IMG/VR virus record: IMGVR_UViG_3300045988_110279
Reading direction: 5' to 3' (one strand)
From: a virus
Length of the DNA: 64,000 nucleotides
Below are positions 1 to 64,000 of this stretch, piece after piece; positions within the stretch are counted from its first letter, which is position 1; the number at the start of each line of letters is the position of its first letter. Made by a program: the position numbers and the translations under genes. Under the pieces are notes generated by a model. That model was not told where the DNA came from and ran no database searches. It worked only from the letters and a program-made list of their open reading frames with translations.

Positions 1-111
1 ATAGTCTCCACGAATCATACGGAATTTTATAATATCCTGTTTTGGAATTAACTTTTTCTGTATATTTGTCAAGAATTGGGTCAATATCTTTAGAGCTAAG
101 GCGATACATAA

Positions 112-648
112 TTATACCTTCAATCTCTTGTTAAGTTCAGCAATTAGCTCCTCATTAGTAAAGTCACTAAGAGACTTCTCATTTTTATCAAGAATGAAAG
201 CCGACGCGAGCCCGCCGCTGCCGCCGTAGTTGCCGTGGCCCGCAGACCCACCGATGCCGACAATGCAAACGCAGTTCGAGGCCCAATTATCTTTCTCAGG
301 AGATCCCCAAGGGGTAACAAGCCAGAACCAATTCTTGATATGAGGAGTTAGAATATGATTATACTTGCGATATTCGTCGAAGGTAAGGGGTGCAACAGCG
401 GTATTTAGCGAACCATATCCTTTATATCCATCCATTGCAGTCAGGTCGACATCGCGCGGAATAGCCTTAATGCCAGTTTTCTTAAGCCAAGCCTCAGCGC
501 CCTTCCGCAATGTACTCTCTTTATAGTTATTAGAATTTCCAAAGATAAAATCAATTCCTACTTCAAGTGCAATTACGAAGGGGTTACCATCAATTTCGTC
601 AAGAACAAGGCACTTTACTCCATTTACAGTAATAGTCTCACCAATCAT
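112..648 (-). CDS. C-type-lectin-fold protein; remote DGR target carrying VR2 near its C-terminus
   Basis: Track ORF 112..714; likely start MIGETITVNG with RBS AAAGGAAG. The C-terminus ...NCVCIVGIGGSAGHGNYGGSGGLASAF is encoded by a GC-rich segment homologous to the DGR TR. Confidence 0.6.
   Translation of the reverse strand: MIGETITVNGVKCLVLDEIDGNPFVIALEVGIDFIFGNSNNYKESTLRKGAEAWLKKTGIKAIPRDVDLTAMDGYKGYGSLNTAVAPLTFDEYRKYNHILTPHIKNWFWLVTPWGSPEKDNWASNCVCIVGIGGSAGHGNYGGSGGLASAFILDKNEKSLSDFTNEELIAELNKRLKV
201..280 (-). repeat. DGR variable repeat VR2 (remote copy)
   Basis: About 80 bp homologous to the TR at 59341-59440. Almost all mismatches fall at TR adenines on the coding (-) strand, and the GGGCTCGCG-type 3' end is shared. 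Confidence 0.7.
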
Positions 649-664
649 ATTTCTCTTCCTTTCT

Positions 665-856
665 TTAATTAGAATACTCTTCAACCATTTGAGAAAGCAT
701 ATCAATTTCATCATCTGTTATGTTATCAAAAAAGATACCGTATTTTGCGCAGATTTGAGCTTGCTGAGATGGATCGTTCATAGTCCATGGCTTTGAAGCC
801 AATTCTCGAGCAGCCAGTTCAAAAGCGCCAGTGTATGCGAAAAATGACATATCCAT
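665..856 (-). CDS. hypothetical protein
   Basis: Track ORF with GGAGG RBS and TAA stop. Confidence 0.5.
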   Translation of the reverse strand: MDMSFFAYTGAFELAARELASKPWTMNDPSQQAQICAKYGIFFDNITDDEIDMLSQMVEEYSN

Positions 857-859
857 ATT

Positions 860-1294
860 TTATACCTCCTCTACAGAATCAAACTCATGAATTAAGATTG
901 CTCCATTGCTGATTTTTTCTGCGCAAATGATGTGTTTAATTTCATATTTATTTTCATCGGGACAGTAAACAATATGTCCACTTTTTAGCAAGGAAAGAAA
1001 GTCACTTTGATAGTAAGTACGACCTCCGAACTCGTTGCAAATTTTAAGGCGAATTTTATATCCTTCATCAACAGAATAGAGATCTCTTACATTATTATCT
1101 ACTTCGCATAATCGCCAAGTTGGGTCTCCATTATTAATGCTGACTCCAAGAACCGGAATAGGACTATAAGTTTCTTGAATAGCGAAGAATTTAGCTCTTT
1201 TGAGTTGGTCTGTATCAGAAAAGCCGAGGAACTCGCAGATTCTTACAGTGGAGTTCTTATATCCTTCTGATTTAATCAGTTCACTAATCTTCAT
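860..1294 (-). CDS. hypothetical protein
   Basis: Track ORF with RBS AAAGGAAG and TAA stop. Confidence 0.55.
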   Translation of the reverse strand: MKISELIKSEGYKNSTVRICEFLGFSDTDQLKRAKFFAIQETYSPIPVLGVSINNGDPTWRLCEVDNNVRDLYSVDEGYKIRLKICNEFGGRTYYQSDFLSLLKSGHIVYCPDENKYEIKHIICAEKISNGAILIHEFDSVEEV

Positions 1295-1351
1295 AACTTT
1301 TACTTCCTTTCCTTAACTTTCTATATATATTATATAATAATTTTATAAAAA

Positions 1352-1381
1352 AATAAAGACGCTCTTTTAAGAGCGTCTTTA
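1352..1381. terminator. hairpin terminator
   Basis: aaagacgctctt-ttaa-gagcgtcttt perfect stem flanked by A/T runs. Confidence 0.6.
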
Positions 1382-1524
1382 TTTTACTCAAGGTCGATTA
1401 CATAATTCTCTTGGATAAATGAATCTTCTGGAATATAGATGGTGTATTCAACAGACCGAGGTCCAAGTAAGAAATTTAAAACTGGGTTTTTGAAACGGAT
1501 TTTATTTTCTTCTATGTATGGGTC

Positions 1525-1890
1525 ATCATTTGTGTTCTTGATATAAGACTAATTTGCTTCAATAGATTTAGCAGTTATACCTTTATCTGTTTGATATAAG
1601 AATGAATAATAAAGCCCATCCTCTGTATAGTAACGACCTACATAGGAACTAAAATTATCATTTAAAGCAGTAATAGAATATGTTTGAGTGGTTTTCGCAG
1701 AATAGGTTGCGGGTTCAACAAAAATAACAATACCACAAATTATAAACATAATTAAGAAAGCGACGAATGCTGAAAGCACAACTCCGACAATGGTAGAGAA
1801 TAGATATTCTACAAAAGAGTCACAGTCTTTATAGAATATTATAAGAGATGTAACCATGAATAATATAAAGAACCCAATAGCTAGTGGCAT
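1525..1890 (-). CDS. membrane protein
   Basis: Track ORF 1549..1890 is hydrophobic. Its stop is TAG, so under recoding it extends 8 codons to a TGA near 1525. Confidence 0.45.
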
Positions 1891-1991
1891 GAGTAAAACC
1901 TCTTTTCTTATTTATATAAATATATTACCATATTTTATTAAGATACGCAAGTAAATCTTATGGATTATAACGAACCGTCATAATTTCTCAC

Positions 1992-2030
1992 GGATGCGGG
2001 AATTTTTTAGGCAGAGAAATTGGCAATCCC
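1992..2030. promoter_or_regulatory. inverted repeat gcgggaatt...aatcccgc containing an AATTGGCAAT motif
   Basis: Stem of about 8 bp. It contains the reverse complement of the ATTGCCAATTT motif found upstream of the recombinase gene. Confidence 0.3.
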
Positions 2031-61804: not shown

Positions 61805-61978
61805 ATTGTTTACCTCCTTCTATCTAGCTATTGCTATAAACAAATCTAAATTACTAGATAGAAGGTCGAGGATGGAAGCGATCTTCGCTCCAGTCTTTTA
61901 GAAAGTCATTAACAATTTCCGAGAAAAAGTACACTTTTTAACAGGAAAAATACTTCTTCTGTCTAGATAATAAAAAAT

Positions 61979-62009
61979 TGGGAAAAGGGTAAGAAACCCT
62001 TTTCCCAAA
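61979..62009. terminator. hairpin ttgggaaaaggg-taagaaa-cccttttcccaa
   Basis: Perfect 12-bp stem in the divergent intergenic region, with a T-run on the minus strand. Confidence 0.5.
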
Positions 62010-62129
62010 AGTGAGTATCTTACTCTTTTCAAATATATATGAAAGAAAGAGTAGATAAATTATATATAGTTGACCAAGTTCAGTAAAGTGTACTTTTTTA
62101 AAGATTTTAGATGAAAGGAGAAAATATCT

Positions 62130-62768
62130 ATGGAATGTATTTTAACTGGATAGGTTAAAAATCAAAATGCTATTACCGTACCAGGCGGCGGTAGCGCAGA
62201 AATGGGAGAAACATTAGGGTTAGGGCCTTATACTATTGAATTTGATGAAGAAGATAATGAAAATCTTACTGCATCATCAATAGAATATAATAATGAAGCT
62301 TCAAGTATGAAAGCCACTAATGTTCAATCAGCTATTGATGAGCTTTTTACCGATGTCAGTGAGGGCAAAACCCTAATAGCGACCGCAGTCACTGACAAGG
62401 GAGTAGAAACTGCGGCAACCGATAGTTTTTCAACTATGGCAGATAAGATAGGATAGATTACAACAGAAACCCCTATAGAAACAGTAGATGTTATATTCGA
62501 GTCATTGAGAGGTATAAGTGGAGGTACAGTGATAATAGAATATGAAAATGCACCAATGTCAGTATGGGTAATGCAGAAAAATAATTATAAAGTAATAAAA
62601 AATAGCATTTTAACTATAAATGCCGGTTCTTCTTCAGGGCTCAAAATTACTCCCCAGTCTGCATATGAAAGTTTGGGGGCTATATTAATAAATAATAATT
62701 ATCAAGTTATAGCATATAAAATTATTGGTCCCGCTACAATTACTTCTACTGGAGGTAATATTGATTAA
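62130..62768 (+). CDS. tail fibre-like protein (212 aa)
   Basis: RBS AAAGGAGA. Track ORFs 62202.. and 62505.. are joined by TAG. Confidence 0.45.
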
Positions 62769-62790
62769 ATTTAGGAGGTAGTATTATACT

Positions 62791-63189
62791 ATGATAAAAG
62801 TAAATGGGAAAAAGGTTGCTGGAATAGGGTAGCCTGGATTAAACGGCAAATCTGCTTATGAAACAGCTAAAGAAGGAGGGTTTACTGGAACTGAAAAGGA
62901 GTTCAATACTATATTAGCAAATTCTGCACTTAAACCTATTATTAAATTGATAACTCTATATTCATCAGCTTGGTCTAATAATACTCAAACAGTAAATATA
63001 ATTGGAGTATTGAGCGATGAGGGCAAATAGATAATTTGTCCAACTCCAACAATAAAAGATATAGATATATATAATAATTCAGGCATTTAGTGTATAAATC
63101 AACAAGAAAATAGTTTAACTTTTAAAGCCCAAAAAATTCCAGAAAATGATATATAGATATATATAATTTTGTAGGAGGTGCGAACATGA
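62791..63189 (+). CDS. tail fibre-associated protein with GQPGLNGKSAYETAKEGGFTGTEKEF motif
   Basis: RBS AGGAGGTA, TAGs as sense, TGA stop overlapping the next ATG. Confidence 0.45.
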
Positions 63190-63434
63190 TTATTAACCAA
63201 ACTTTTCAGACGGAAAAGTATTCAATAATAGATAAAACAAGCCTTCAATATGGCTATCCAGTAAGAGCAACCCCTGGGGAAATTGTTTACAGCAGTCCTA
63301 TGAGTGCAGGAATATCAGATAATGTATATTTAATAAAAGATGGAAGCTCTATTGATAATGTTTATTCAGATGGTAGATATAAATTTATAATGCCAGAAGG
63401 TGATGTTTTGATTGCTAGAGATTATCCTTGGTAA
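63186..63434 (+). CDS. hypothetical protein (TAG-free)
   Basis: Track ORF. Confidence 0.45.
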   Translation: MIINQTFQTEKYSIIDKTSLQYGYPVRATPGEIVYSSPMSAGISDNVYLIKDGSSIDNVYSDGRYKFIMPEGDVLIARDYPW

Positions 63435-63477
63435 TCTTATATATATTATATAATAAAATTTTATATAAATCAAAACG

Positions 63478-63532
63478 CCGAATTGCCAAAATTTTGGGCA
63501 ATTTTTGTTATATAAAATTGCCAATTTTTTAT
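63478..63532. promoter_or_regulatory. two imperfect palindromes AATTGCCAAAATTTTGGGCAATT and AAAATTGCCAATTTT upstream of the recombinase gene (hix/res-like)
   Basis: A-tract and T-tract flank the centre, as in hix/gix sites. Both lie directly 5' of the serine recombinase gene. Confidence 0.45.
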
Positions 63533-63552
63533 ATATCTATGAGGTGATAAAG

Positions 63553-64000
63553 GTGTTATACGGATATGCACGAGTTAGTTCACGTGACCAAAATATTGAC
63601 CGCCAAATTCTTGCTTTAACTGAAGCTGGGGTTAAAGAAGAAAATATCTTCATAGATAAACAGTCGGGCAAAGATTTTAATAGACCATCTTATTAGAAAA
63701 TGATGGATACTGTGACTTCAGGAGATATGATTCTCCTGAAGTCCATTGACAGATTAGGGCGTAATTATTCTGAAATTCTTGAACAATGGAGTTTAATAAC
63801 AAAGACAAAAAATGTAGATATAAAAGTTTTGGATATGCCATTATTGGATACGTCATATTGCAAAGATATTATGGGTACTTTTATATCAGATCTAGTCTTA
63901 CAAATCTTATCTTTCTAGGCTGAACAGGAAAGAACATATATTAAATAGAGATAGGCAGAAGGAATAGCCGCAGCTAAATAGAAAGGAATAAAATTTGGTA
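63553..64000 (+). CDS. small serine recombinase (resolvase/invertase family), 3' end truncated by the window
   Basis: GTG start after GGTGA gives [18 protein letters not shown]... and later ...AEGIAAAK(Q)KGIKFG. The track frames 63505.. and 63700.. become continuous when TAG is sense. Confidence 0.75.

Follow-up and report, generated by a model that had tools for sequence, protein, structure and literature searches.

In-frame TAG codons, probably read as glutamine, in the late genes of a human-gut SPbeta/EF1-like siphovirus

The window analysed here is the whole 64,000-nucleotide stretch of the virus record IMGVR_UViG_3300045988_110279. Its left-hand part is occupied by a minus-strand block of small, presumed early genes (112..17191), which by codon counts is nearly free of TAG. 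Counted together with FolD, these minus-strand genes contain 7 TAGs in 2519 codons (0.28 per 100), and only 3 of the 42 table-11 ORFs between 112 and 17191 end at TAG. Homology identifies a microbial-type PARG-like gene (15758-16525) in this block. On the opposite strand within it lies a 212-aa ORF (2198..2836, plus strand) with 11 TAGs, the highest density in the window; TAG provides 11 of its 12 Gln-type codons, and no family match was obtained in family and profile searches. A further gene, proposed at 11876 by the first-pass annotation, turned out to be an ORF of 77 aa that contains a single TAG and has no homology to support it. FolD (methylene-THF dehydrogenase/cyclohydrolase; 17098..17913, minus strand) is recognised by both of its Pfam domains and holds four in-frame TAGs, two of them inside the domains. 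Both domains, as well as PDB alignments, span TAGs, as had been claimed for this protein.

The packaging, head and tail genes form a late block on the plus strand (18169..56669), consisting of 26 tiled genes delimited by TAA or TGA. It contains 286 in-frame TAGs in 12,627 codons (2.26 per 100, range 0-4.0), less than half of the roughly 5 per 100 estimated at first, and TAG makes up 49% of its Gln-type codons. The first gene (18169..19380; 11 TAGs) gives a match to a PHROG labelled 'sigma factor', and its C-terminal region is zinc-ribbon/HNH-like; searches against NCBIfam and PDB gave no match, and the sigma label is without independent support. The terminase large subunit (TerL; 20560..22305, 581 aa, 13 TAGs) shares 50% identity over 93% of its length, in one unbroken alignment, with the proteins annotated as TerL in Enterococcus phage H1 and in Geobacillus virus E3. 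Two short PHROGs are matched as well, one by the N-terminal and the other by the C-terminal part, a pattern suggestive of database fragments. The portal protein (22683..24308, 541 aa, 12 TAGs; phrog_2739, 2e-79) likewise gives single-piece tblastn matches to the portals of standard-code phages. The tape-measure-sized gene (34710..43436) encodes 2908 aa and ends at TAA, with 101 in-frame TAGs beside 89 CAA and 16 CAG codons. Part of it aligns to the region of phage phAss-1 for which a tape measure of 3149 aa has been reported (PMC10607447). With TAA and TGA together at about 4-6% of the codons in each frame, chance cannot produce 2908 consecutive codons lacking both. Thus, the early observation that terminase, portal and this long frame run through their TAGs is well founded.

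Five genes of the late block avoid TAG. Three of them are TAG-free genes of 229 aa (25596..26285, between the YonD-like and YonB-like genes), 177 aa (27422..27955) and 179 aa (34065..34604, immediately upstream of the tape measure). The fourth encodes the tail tube or major virion protein (31106..32497, 463 aa; YomU_Tube, phrog_2729), with 12 Gln codons and no TAG. The fifth is a YonB-family protein (26305..27357), the probable major capsid protein, for which structure prediction gave a pLDDT of 47. It had been listed among the proteins that continue through TAGs; a TAG is indeed present, but it is just one, at codon 240, among 13 Gln-type codons. The database protein P0001, 99% identical to this product (g29), has Q at codon 240 and is encoded with TAG there in one contig and with CAG in another. 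Together, the five genes contain 1 TAG in 37 Gln codons (binomial P = 6e-10), and the same avoidance holds in 62 recoded relatives.

The right-hand end of the window carries a diversity-generating retroelement (DGR) on the minus strand and a serine recombinase on the plus strand. The DGR reverse transcriptase (57813..59031) has an RVT_1 domain that spans in-frame TAGs, in line with the first reading; its frame is, however, also broken by the insertion of one additional A into a run of A near 58680, which splits it in two. This homopolymer frameshift is unrelated to recoding. The template repeat (59338..59440) is paired with a variable repeat (60061-60163) inside the target gene (60047..61843; Big_3 and DUF6273 domains, 9 TAGs), and 21 of the 22 differences between the repeats fall at template adenines. 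The recombinase frame (63505..64000) exceeds the window end. Of the five TAGs in its window part, two precede the likely start at 63553. Its resolvase N-terminal domain (PF00239) spans in-frame TAGs, as proposed. In the alignment with Sin, three TAGs stand opposite Q, V and E, and the fourth is outside the aligned region; the statement that these positions correspond to Q or E thus holds for two of three.

The reading of TAG as a sense codon is clearly visible in the ORF structure. ORFs of at least 100 aa cover 44% of the window under table 11 and 93% with TAG as sense, whereas with TGA as sense the figure is only 52%. In a set of 54 genes, 333 in-frame TAGs are spread over 34 genes, and there is no in-frame TAA or TGA. 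The ORFs of this set are delimited by TAA or TGA by construction (43 TAA, 10 TGA, one running off the window end); the support for TAG as sense therefore comes from the late ORFs, which tile with gaps or overlaps of only a few bases, and not from the ends themselves. Thus, conserved genes with in-frame TAGs and TAA/TGA ends are confirmed, and with them the first-pass view that genes end at TAA or TGA; table 11 gives the poorer coverage. The wording that TAG is sense throughout holds for most late genes, but not for the nearly TAG-free minus-strand block or the five late genes that avoid it.

It could be argued that the TAGs are never translated, the genes being pseudogenes or the codons sequencing or assembly artefacts. 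One clear defect, the extra A in the reverse transcriptase, does exist, and the GenBank record of phAss-1 annotates the same genes as fragments. However, decay or error would have to account for 333 TAGs against zero TAA/TGA in the same genes, for 548 TAG=TAG columns common to independently assembled contigs from many samples, and for protein conservation that persists past the TAGs in dozens of relatives of a lineage abundant across many human-gut assemblies. The conservation pattern has refuted this explanation in practice, and the chance that it is correct is negligible.

The relatives also place the phage. A contig of the same species, IMGVR_UViG_3300045988_084596 (L060), is 146 kb long and about 98% identical to the window. 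Orthologues of the late block were found in phAss-1 and at 80 IMG/VR loci, and the Pfam names recorded for the module are YonB, YonD_N, YomW, YomV and YomU_Tube. phAss-1 (OQ749652) belongs to the proposed Phassvirus group, the 'Caudoviricetes code 15 clade' of NCBI (Babkin et al. 2023, PMC10607447). It matches 19 window genes at 25-59% identity with the order mostly kept, and TerL, portal and the head and tail module are orthologous and syntenic, which places the window phage in the monophyletic group around phAss-1 (SPbeta/EF1-like large siphoviruses). Members of the proposed genus Phassvirus, defined by high nucleotide similarity to phAss-1, share 80-86% nucleotide identity among themselves (PMC10607447), whereas the head genes here share 37-52% protein identity with phAss-1; the window phage is therefore a different genus-level lineage. 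A megablast search of 25 kb of the late region against GenBank phages returned zero matches. A host among the Clostridia is weakly hinted at by a related phage contig that was placed in the bin of an 'uncultured Eubacterium sp.' MAG, and by the host prediction of the phAss-1 authors (PMC10607447). The near-absence of TAG from the left block is compatible with a standard-code host. Code-15 phages have been on record since 2014 and the clade was described in 2023; both TAG recoding in gut phages and the clade itself are thus already published, and the window is a further member. A public gene-call collection already translates the genes of close relatives through TAG.

The amino acid was sought in 16 standard-code relatives without in-frame TAG, including the cultured Enterococcus phage EF1. 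At the TAG columns of the window, these relatives have Gln in 503 of 1334 cases (37.7%, against a background of 3.8%), close to the 44% conservation of true Gln codons. In each of four comparisons, the likelihood is highest for Gln, which leads the runner-up by 808 log-likelihood units with all relatives, 12.9 with EF1 alone, 43.5 with MT836163 and 90 with L103. The Gln content of the late proteins is 4.6% when TAG is counted and 2.4% when it is not; standard-code relatives have about 3.8-4.1%. Between strains that share 87-98% protein identity, the codons that trade places with TAG are mainly CAA/CAG, and the commonest replacement for CAG and for CAA is TAG. The Gln in the relatives' columns, these exchanges and a tRNA with the anticodon CUA are three independent lines which support the reassignment of TAG to Gln, as initially suspected.

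Another residue at TAG, namely Glu (through a glutamylated, unamidated tRNA), Lys or pyrrolysine, is very unlikely. The relatives infect Firmicutes, and many of these bacteria synthesise Gln-tRNA through Glu-tRNA. Glu is the second commonest residue at the TAG columns (13.7%), and single TAG columns stand opposite E, K or V in solved homologues. However, Gln is ahead of Glu by 808 log-likelihood units overall and also with each relative taken singly, Lys is more than 1100 units behind, the E/K/D share at TAG columns equals that at true Gln columns, and the close strains do not exchange TAG with GAA/GAG or AAA. With respect to pyrrolysine, some members of the Desulfitobacteriaceae carry pyrrolysine systems. 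It is another member of this family, Dehalobacter sp., whose tRNA-SUP-CTA is most similar to the second suppressor tRNA of phAss-1 (PMC10607447). ARAGORN gives the label 'Pyl' to any CUA tRNA. The phage tRNA is a canonical cloverleaf: its D loop is of the G18G19 type, its T loop is normal and its variable loop has 5 nt. A tRNA-Pyl would instead show a small D loop, a variable loop of 3 nt and an anticodon stem of 6 bp. Pyrrolysine decoding was rejected on this ground and on that of the alignments, and no pyl genes (pylBCDS) were seen in the annotated regions.

This tRNA(CUA) lies at 15653-15728 of L060, about 27 kb left of the window and on the strand of the window's left-hand genes. A search of the 64-kb window itself found none; the tRNA that the first-pass annotation suggested looking for is thus known for the species, from the ~98%-identical contig and six further related contigs. 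It is identical or differs by one base across these seven contigs and is present in every relative covering the region. It scores 59.8 bits with the Rfam tRNA model, belongs to a small Ser-Sup-Leu-Cys tRNA group and encodes its own CCA; a ribosome-binding site and a small ORF come immediately after it. A sigma-70 consensus that is matched perfectly (12/12) and has an extended -10 is located on that strand, about 440 nt upstream of the tRNA. Its short variable arm excludes a Leu, Ser or Tyr architecture, and its G73 and unpaired U1/U72 agree with the known features of Gln identity. Overall similarity (Asn 0.74, Trp 0.71, Gln 0.68) does not single out Gln, and the amino acid identity therefore rests on the alignments. 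The tRNA is 84% identical to the tRNA-Sup-CTA that phAss-1 has as its second copy; tRNAscan-SE assigned a tRNA-SUP-CTA of that phage to Gln, which of three copies being unspecified (PMC10607447). This homology and the acceptor features indirectly suggest charging with Gln. The release-factor genes, for which a search had also been suggested, did not appear, as neither RF2 or another release factor, nor an RF1 antagonist or an aaRS, was found in ~130 of 146 kb.

Some would instead see no dedicated reassignment, only leaky TAG stops read by near-cognate tRNAs or a host suppressor, or a host that itself reads TAG as sense. The phage encodes tRNA-Gln(UUG) and tRNA-Gln(CUG), the latter a near-cognate candidate by G-U pairing at the first position of the codon; the window itself is without a CUA tRNA, and recoded relatives with no detected Sup tRNA were reported by the phAss-1 authors (PMC10607447). 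This explanation is highly improbable, considering the retention of a cognate tRNA(CUA) and the fact that read-through of a few percent could not carry translation past all 101 TAGs of one gene. In addition, TAG is nearly missing from the left block and from replication genes, which argues that some of the genome has to function while TAG is a stop, and for such phages the hosts are predicted to be standard-code bacteria (Borges et al., bioRxiv 10.1101/2021.08.26.457843). We are thus highly confident that the window is part of a ~146-kb human-gut SPbeta/EF1-like siphovirus which uses code 15, with TAG as Gln and its own suppressor tRNA(CUA).

The closest parallel is phAss-1, a human-gut siphovirus of similar size (136 kb) with the same gene order in its SPbeta/EF1-like virion module, TAGs in TerL, portal and tape measure, and a large tRNA set including tRNA-Sup-CTA. 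Its authors reported no aaRS, and the present scan found no release-factor motif; the same monophyletic group mixes recoded and standard-code genomes. It differs in having three CUA tRNAs, against one seen here, in the position of its CUA tRNA next to nrdD and in the arrangement of modules around nrdD, while the window phage carries the DGR.

In code-15 crAss-like phages, TAG=Gln was proven by metaproteomics (Peters et al. 2022, PMC9523058), whereas the window phage is known from sequence alone. Those phages and the recoded gut phages surveyed by Borges et al. (bioRxiv 10.1101/2021.08.26.457843) share with it the phage-encoded suppressor tRNA, recoding confined to some genes (early standard-compatible, structural recoded), a strongly recoded homing-type endonuclease (here GIY-YIG, 8 TAGs) and the interleaving of recoded and standard-code lineages. 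The crAss-like phages infect Bacteroidetes, while here the relatives are of Firmicute type and the phage lineage is separate; the RF2 and aaRS genes of these systems were not seen in the part scanned. Recoded gut phages also have suppressor tRNAs with an associated Theta (HDV-like) ribozyme (Kienbeck et al. 2024, PMC10879173). The suppressor tRNA(CUA) is common to both, but an Rfam search (E <= 0.1) gave no HDV-like ribozyme adjoining it here. The classical amber suppressors of E. coli that derive from tRNA-Gln or are charged like it include supE and the tRNA-Trp-derived su7, which is charged with Gln; where the 1-72 pair is weak and G73 is present, a CUA tRNA is a GlnRS substrate. The phage tRNA resembles them in carrying CUA on an ordinary elongator tRNA with these acceptor features. 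They give partial read-through and coexist with TAG stops, whereas here TAG is about half of the late-gene Gln codons and hardly ever a stop.

In line with the published model, translation would begin, under the host's standard code, with the left block, which nearly lacks TAG, and with the mostly TAG-free replication-side genes. The suppressor, once made and charged, presumably by a host enzyme, would then let ribosomes insert Gln at TAG, with TAA and TGA remaining as stops. This would open full translation of the packaging, portal, tail, tape-measure, FolD, RecJ, GIY-YIG endonuclease, DGR and recombinase genes. A Clostridia host without GlnRS, if that is the case, would pose a difficulty, as GluRS and GatCAB would have to charge a tRNA with a CUA anticodon. 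Moreover, 101 TAGs in one essential gene would demand about 99% read-through per codon (0.99^101 = 0.36; 0.95^101 = 0.006). The genes of the most abundant virion proteins, the probable capsid and tail-tube genes among them, may avoid TAG for the reason that a suppressed codon is decoded less efficiently than an ordinary one. The labels 'early' and 'late' come from gene content and strand only, and the two-phase picture is not clean, since the ORF at 2198-2836 and FolD bear TAGs among TAG-free neighbours. TAG use is, in any case, strongly gene-specific, and within the sampled clade TAG density is highest in the window lineage.

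When ORFs of at least 100 amino acids are called with translation table 11, they cover 44% of the window, the G+C content of which is 35%. The coverage rises to 93% if TAG is taken as a sense codon and to 52% if TGA is so taken. Once the stops are limited to TAA and TGA, the late block of packaging, head and tail genes (18169-56669, plus strand) yields 26 genes, with neighbours that abut or share a few bases. The working set of 54 genes holds 333 in-frame TAGs, spread over 34 genes, and its 43 TAA and 10 TGA stops are fixed by the way in which the ORFs were called. The 2908-aa frame of the tape measure (34710-43436, plus strand) carries 101 in-frame TAGs.

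The genes interrupted in this manner are genuine. In FolD (17098-17913, minus strand), the matches to both Pfam FolD domains run through TAGs, and the whole protein can be aligned to FolDs of known structure; the TAG columns are variable positions there (D/T/E/G and K/H/E/E) and give no hint of the amino acid. Similarly, the portal (22683-24308, plus strand) matches phrog_2739 at 2e-79 and aligns in a single piece with standard-code phage portals. The 581-aa terminase large subunit, TerL (20560-22305, plus strand), aligns as a single segment across 93% of its length, with 50% identity, to the annotated TerL of Enterococcus phage H1. Its N terminus matches one PHROG family and its C terminus another, which suggests that table-11 calls have fragmented such genes in the databases; in the GenBank record of phAss-1, a published code-15 gut siphovirus, the TerL gene appears as three ‘hypothetical proteins’. 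The recombinase (63505 onward, plus strand) matches PF00239. Thus, the proposal of the first-pass annotation that TAG is read as sense within real genes is confirmed, both by domains that continue across the TAGs and by a coding density far better than that of table 11.

The structural genes gave no matches in Pfam and NCBIfam, and their identities come from PHROGs and from the annotations of cultured relatives. Newer Pfam families named for SPbeta virion proteins (YonB, YonD_N, YomW, YomV and YomU_Tube) span the virion module and are missing from the Pfam version scanned. The label of ‘sigma factor’ for the first late-block gene was discarded, as it comes from one PHROG annotation and finds no support elsewhere. 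An exact-protein look-up of the first gene of the window returned no record.

The amino acid placed at TAG was sought through relatives. A scan of IMG/VR with the capsid-like protein gave 508 of them, and 80 loci of about 20 kb were retained along with phAss-1, Enterococcus phage EF1 and MT836163. TAG was rendered as X in the window and in the relatives, which were aligned by BLASTP. In 16 relatives, at 39-60% identity, the aligned late genes have no in-frame TAG (one locus has one), and these are therefore taken to use the standard code. Glutamine stands at 503 of the 1334 window TAG columns in these relatives (37.7%), against a background of 3.8%, while true Gln codons are conserved at 44% in the same comparison. 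The next residues are Glu (13.7%), Lys (11.1%) and Asp (9.0%), shares which would be as expected of Gln columns. When each amino acid was scored as the explanation of the TAG columns, with a substitution table derived from the same alignments, Gln was the best, 808 log units above Glu overall. It also came first in separate comparisons with EF1 (by 12.9), MT836163 (43.5) and two further relatives, L103 (90) and L104 (55).

Two other lines of evidence point the same way. The Gln content of the late proteins is 4.6% with TAG counted and 2.4% without it, and it is about 3.8-4.1% in the standard-code relatives. Among strains that are 87-98% identical at the protein level, TAG swaps chiefly with CAA and CAG; it is the commonest replacement of CAG (17 cases, against 13 for CAA) as well as of CAA (24, against 19 for CAG). 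The assignment of TAG to glutamine, earlier put forward as probable, is thus supported.

The YonB-family probable capsid (26305-27357, plus strand) offers a view of a single codon. At its one TAG, codon 240, a database protein of 99% identity, P0001, carries Q, and the codon is TAG in one of the contigs encoding P0001 and CAG in another. This protein cannot be obtained from its DNA with table 11, and the recorded gene calls of the public contigs that carry it (L223, L224 and L225) read TAG as Gln. A neighbouring called gene on these contigs, of 330 aa, has 10 in-frame TAGs. A profile search of the capsid-like protein against PDB sequences gave noise only, and the structure predicted from its database homologues has a pLDDT of 47.

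The use of TAG is far from even. It had been claimed that TAG serves as a sense codon throughout, at about 5 per 100 codons in late genes. The measured late-block density is about half of this, 2.26 per 100 codons (49% of the Gln-type codons), and the left block (112-17191, minus strand) together with FolD has 0.28. In the left block, 3 of the 42 table-11 ORFs terminate at TAG, and one of these three is the internal TAG of FolD. Outside the window, the count of TAGs per replication-side gene is 0-2 (DnaB, ligases, NrdD, a 1293-aa gene and an MVP-like gene), except in a RecJ-like exonuclease, with 13, and a GIY-YIG endonuclease, with 8. Such a distribution fits the published model of standard-code-compatible early genes followed by suppressor-dependent late ones, which belongs to a description of stop-codon recoding and suppressor tRNAs in gut phages (Borges et al., bioRxiv 10.1101/2021.08.26.457843); we infer the timing in the present phage.

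Within the late block, five plus-strand genes are nearly free of TAG, with one TAG in 37 Gln codons (binomial P = 6e-10). They lie at 25596-26285, 26305-27357 (the probable capsid), 27422-27955, 31106-32497 (the YomU_Tube/phrog_2729 tail tube) and 34065-34604. In 62 recoded relatives of less than 80% identity, TAG makes up 1-7% of the Gln-type codons in the orthologues of these five and 18-49% in the other late genes. The tape measure, portal, terminase, RecJ, GIY-YIG endonuclease and first late-block gene have TAG at 18-73% or more. Selection to keep TAG out of the genes under the heaviest translation would fit this pattern and would come on top of the published early/late model. A bolder proposal, which we regard as rather unlikely, is that the output or timing of each protein is tuned by the TAG density of its gene, a conserved setting beyond an on/off late switch. 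In this view, low TAG would mark the highest-copy virion proteins (the probable capsid, the tail tube and the other three of the five genes), and high TAG the products that are low-copy or potentially harmful (those of the tape measure and the genes listed with it). If this proposal were true, virion stoichiometry would be set by suppression efficiency, and the 101-TAG tape measure would imply that RF1 is nearly wholly out-competed or disabled late in infection via some further factor.

A 212-aa ORF (2198-2836, plus strand) lies on the opposite strand within the TAG-poor left block. TAG forms 11 of its 12 Gln-type codons, and its 5.2 TAGs per 100 codons are the maximum of the window. It matches no family and has a faint similarity to the helix-turn-helix regions of sigma factors and replication initiators (E about 0.006-0.03).

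The window itself contains no tRNA genes, and a tRNA that could read TAG was looked for in the IMG/VR contig 3300045988_084596. This contig has 146,360 bp, matches the window at about 98% identity and has another start point in the assembly. It was walked by successive scans that covered about 130 of its 146 kb, up to roughly 98.7 kb and from roughly 114.8 kb onward. About 8 kb left of the window starts a cluster of 25 tRNAs and a tmRNA, including tRNA-Gln(UUG) and tRNA-Gln(CUG), in which no tRNA has a CUA anticodon. From phAss-1, where two of the three suppressor copies adjoin nrdD, a suppressor was expected beside this gene. This is not so here: the 10 kb upstream of nrdD are devoid of tRNAs in the same-species contig and, among 20 relatives, the 10 kb on either side hold none except three ordinary tRNAs in one locus (L019).

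On a further walk, a tRNA(CUA) was found in a second small group about 27 kb left of the window, in the order Ser(UGA)-CUA-Leu(CAA)-Cys(GCA). It is a canonical 76-nt cloverleaf (locus L060 of the same contig, 15653-15728) with an encoded CCA, G73 and U1/U72 unpaired, and the Rfam tRNA model gives it 59.8 bits. It is unchanged in six related contigs and one base off in a seventh. The same strand carries a sequence about 440 nt upstream that agrees perfectly with the sigma-70 consensus and has an extended -10; this is a consensus match only. The tRNA is 84% identical to the second of the tRNA-Sup-CTA genes in phAss-1, all three suppressors of which were recovered by ARAGORN as a positive control. 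The authors of phAss-1 report that tRNAscan-SE calls its tRNA-SUP-CTA as Gln, the copy being unspecified (PMC10607447); overall tRNA similarity, used as a pointer to the amino acid, gave no single clear answer for tRNA(CUA). An Rfam search detected no Theta/HDV-like ribozyme flanking it. The part walked held no second suppressor, release-factor motif or aminoacyl-tRNA synthetase, and the release-factor GGQ motif was absent across 3.96 Mb of fetched loci, the complete phAss-1 genome included.

Another gene of this region was considered as an unusual suppressor. It is tRNA-like, 120 nt long and conserved, and it comes immediately after tRNA-Gln(UUG) and tRNA-Gln(CUG), about 18 kb left of the window (locus L058 of the same-species contig, 15662-15781), with counterparts in relatives (L056 16089-16204; L057 15463-15578; L059 10916-11034). 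The acceptor, D and T arms follow the canonical form (Rfam tRNA, 50.9 bits), and no other Rfam family matches the gene; the inner anticodon arm is replaced by about 58 nt, and ARAGORN calls it only with introns permitted. The candidate was rejected because its terminal ‘anticodon’ loop is of 8 to 10 nt, depending on the relative, with no clean 7-nt loop.

In tRNA-Leu(UAA) (L058 15867-16742), the anticodon loop is split by a 789-nt insert with an HNH endonuclease ORF (16097-16624). The insert looks like a group I-type intron, and the tRNA is uninterrupted in L056 and L057. The phage-encoded tmRNA within the tRNA cluster (L058 12546-12876, L057 12594-12909, L059 7487-7802; Rfam 70.9 bits) has in relatives, according to ARAGORN, the tag peptide DNDYFENYLAA. 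Beyond the tRNA region are a TAG-free, 813-aa MVP-domain protein (MVP_shoulder, Vault_3; L151 10298-12739), a TAG-free, 507-aa DUF2828/DUF7788 protein near it (L060 17776-19299) and, near both, an RNA ligase with one TAG (L151 17277-18548). Together, these three may make up a module of RNA repair or of an RNP.

A megablast search with 25 kb of late-block sequence found no match among GenBank phages. The closest described phage is phAss-1 (OQ749652; NCBI ‘Caudoviricetes code 15 clade’), reported to have TAG in 41 ORFs, three tRNA-Sup-CTA genes and TAG read as Gln, within a monophyletic group in which some genomes are recoded and others use the standard code (PMC10607447). For crAss-like phages, the same reading of TAG is confirmed by metaproteomics (PMC9523058). 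The present phage is thus of an already published kind. Its portal, TerL and capsid-like protein are 37%, 44% and 52% identical to those of phAss-1, and it is therefore another lineage of that group. In a neighbour-joining tree of these three proteins, midpoint-rooted and hence indicative only, a TAG-free subclade (L104-L114 and L131) is nested among recoded lineages, and the lineage of the window has the highest TAG density. The densities change stepwise between subclades (about 0.5, 1.0, 1.5 and 2.0-2.3 per 100 codons), which suggests a gradual deepening of recoding and, going by the nested sequences, possibly its loss.

The cultured relatives infect Enterococcus, Bacillus and other Firmicutes, and Eubacteriales hosts were predicted by the authors of phAss-1 (PMC10607447). 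The suppressor-tRNA pattern, run against 185,579 species genomes, had a sole match, in a related 147.8-kb phage contig binned in an ‘uncultured Eubacterium sp.’ MAG. The host may lack GlnRS, in which case the route by which the putative CUA suppressor is charged with Gln would be puzzling.

To the recoded phages is added a lineage of large gut siphoviruses, TAG-rich and of the Firmicute type. If this phage or a relative is annotated with table 11, most late genes are broken up, as the phAss-1 record and some PHROG families illustrate; unless code 15 is applied, this distorts gene catalogues, predictions of host range and counts of protein families. The clade counts more than 500 relatives in IMG/VR and, in public data, over 7,000 capsid-family proteins; its recoded and standard-code members are interleaved, and it is therefore a good natural series for the gain, deepening and loss of a code change. 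Only two points go slightly past the cited literature: the conserved avoidance of TAG in abundant virion proteins, and a tape measure with 101 TAGs. This avoidance and the very high read-through needed by that gene are leads on natural suppression efficiency and the handling of RF1.

The right part of the window holds a complete diversity-generating retroelement (DGR; 57813-61843, minus strand), with a reverse transcriptase (RT) matching RVT_1 (57813-59031), a TR (59338-59440) and a VR (60061-60163) that lies within the 3'-terminal part of the gene for a Big_3/DUF6273 protein. As 21 of the 22 differences between TR and VR fall at TR adenines and the RVT_1 match is present, the DGR is real. The RT is frameshifted in the window by an extra A (GGAAAAAGG near 58680); a 98%-identical locus, L006, reads GGAAAAGG and its RT is intact. 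In the left block, a TAG-free, 255-aa PARG-like gene (15758-16525, minus strand) encodes the catalytic domain of a poly(ADP-ribose) glycohydrolase of microbial type (PF10021, 7e-26), and its product may counteract a defence based on ADP-ribosylation.
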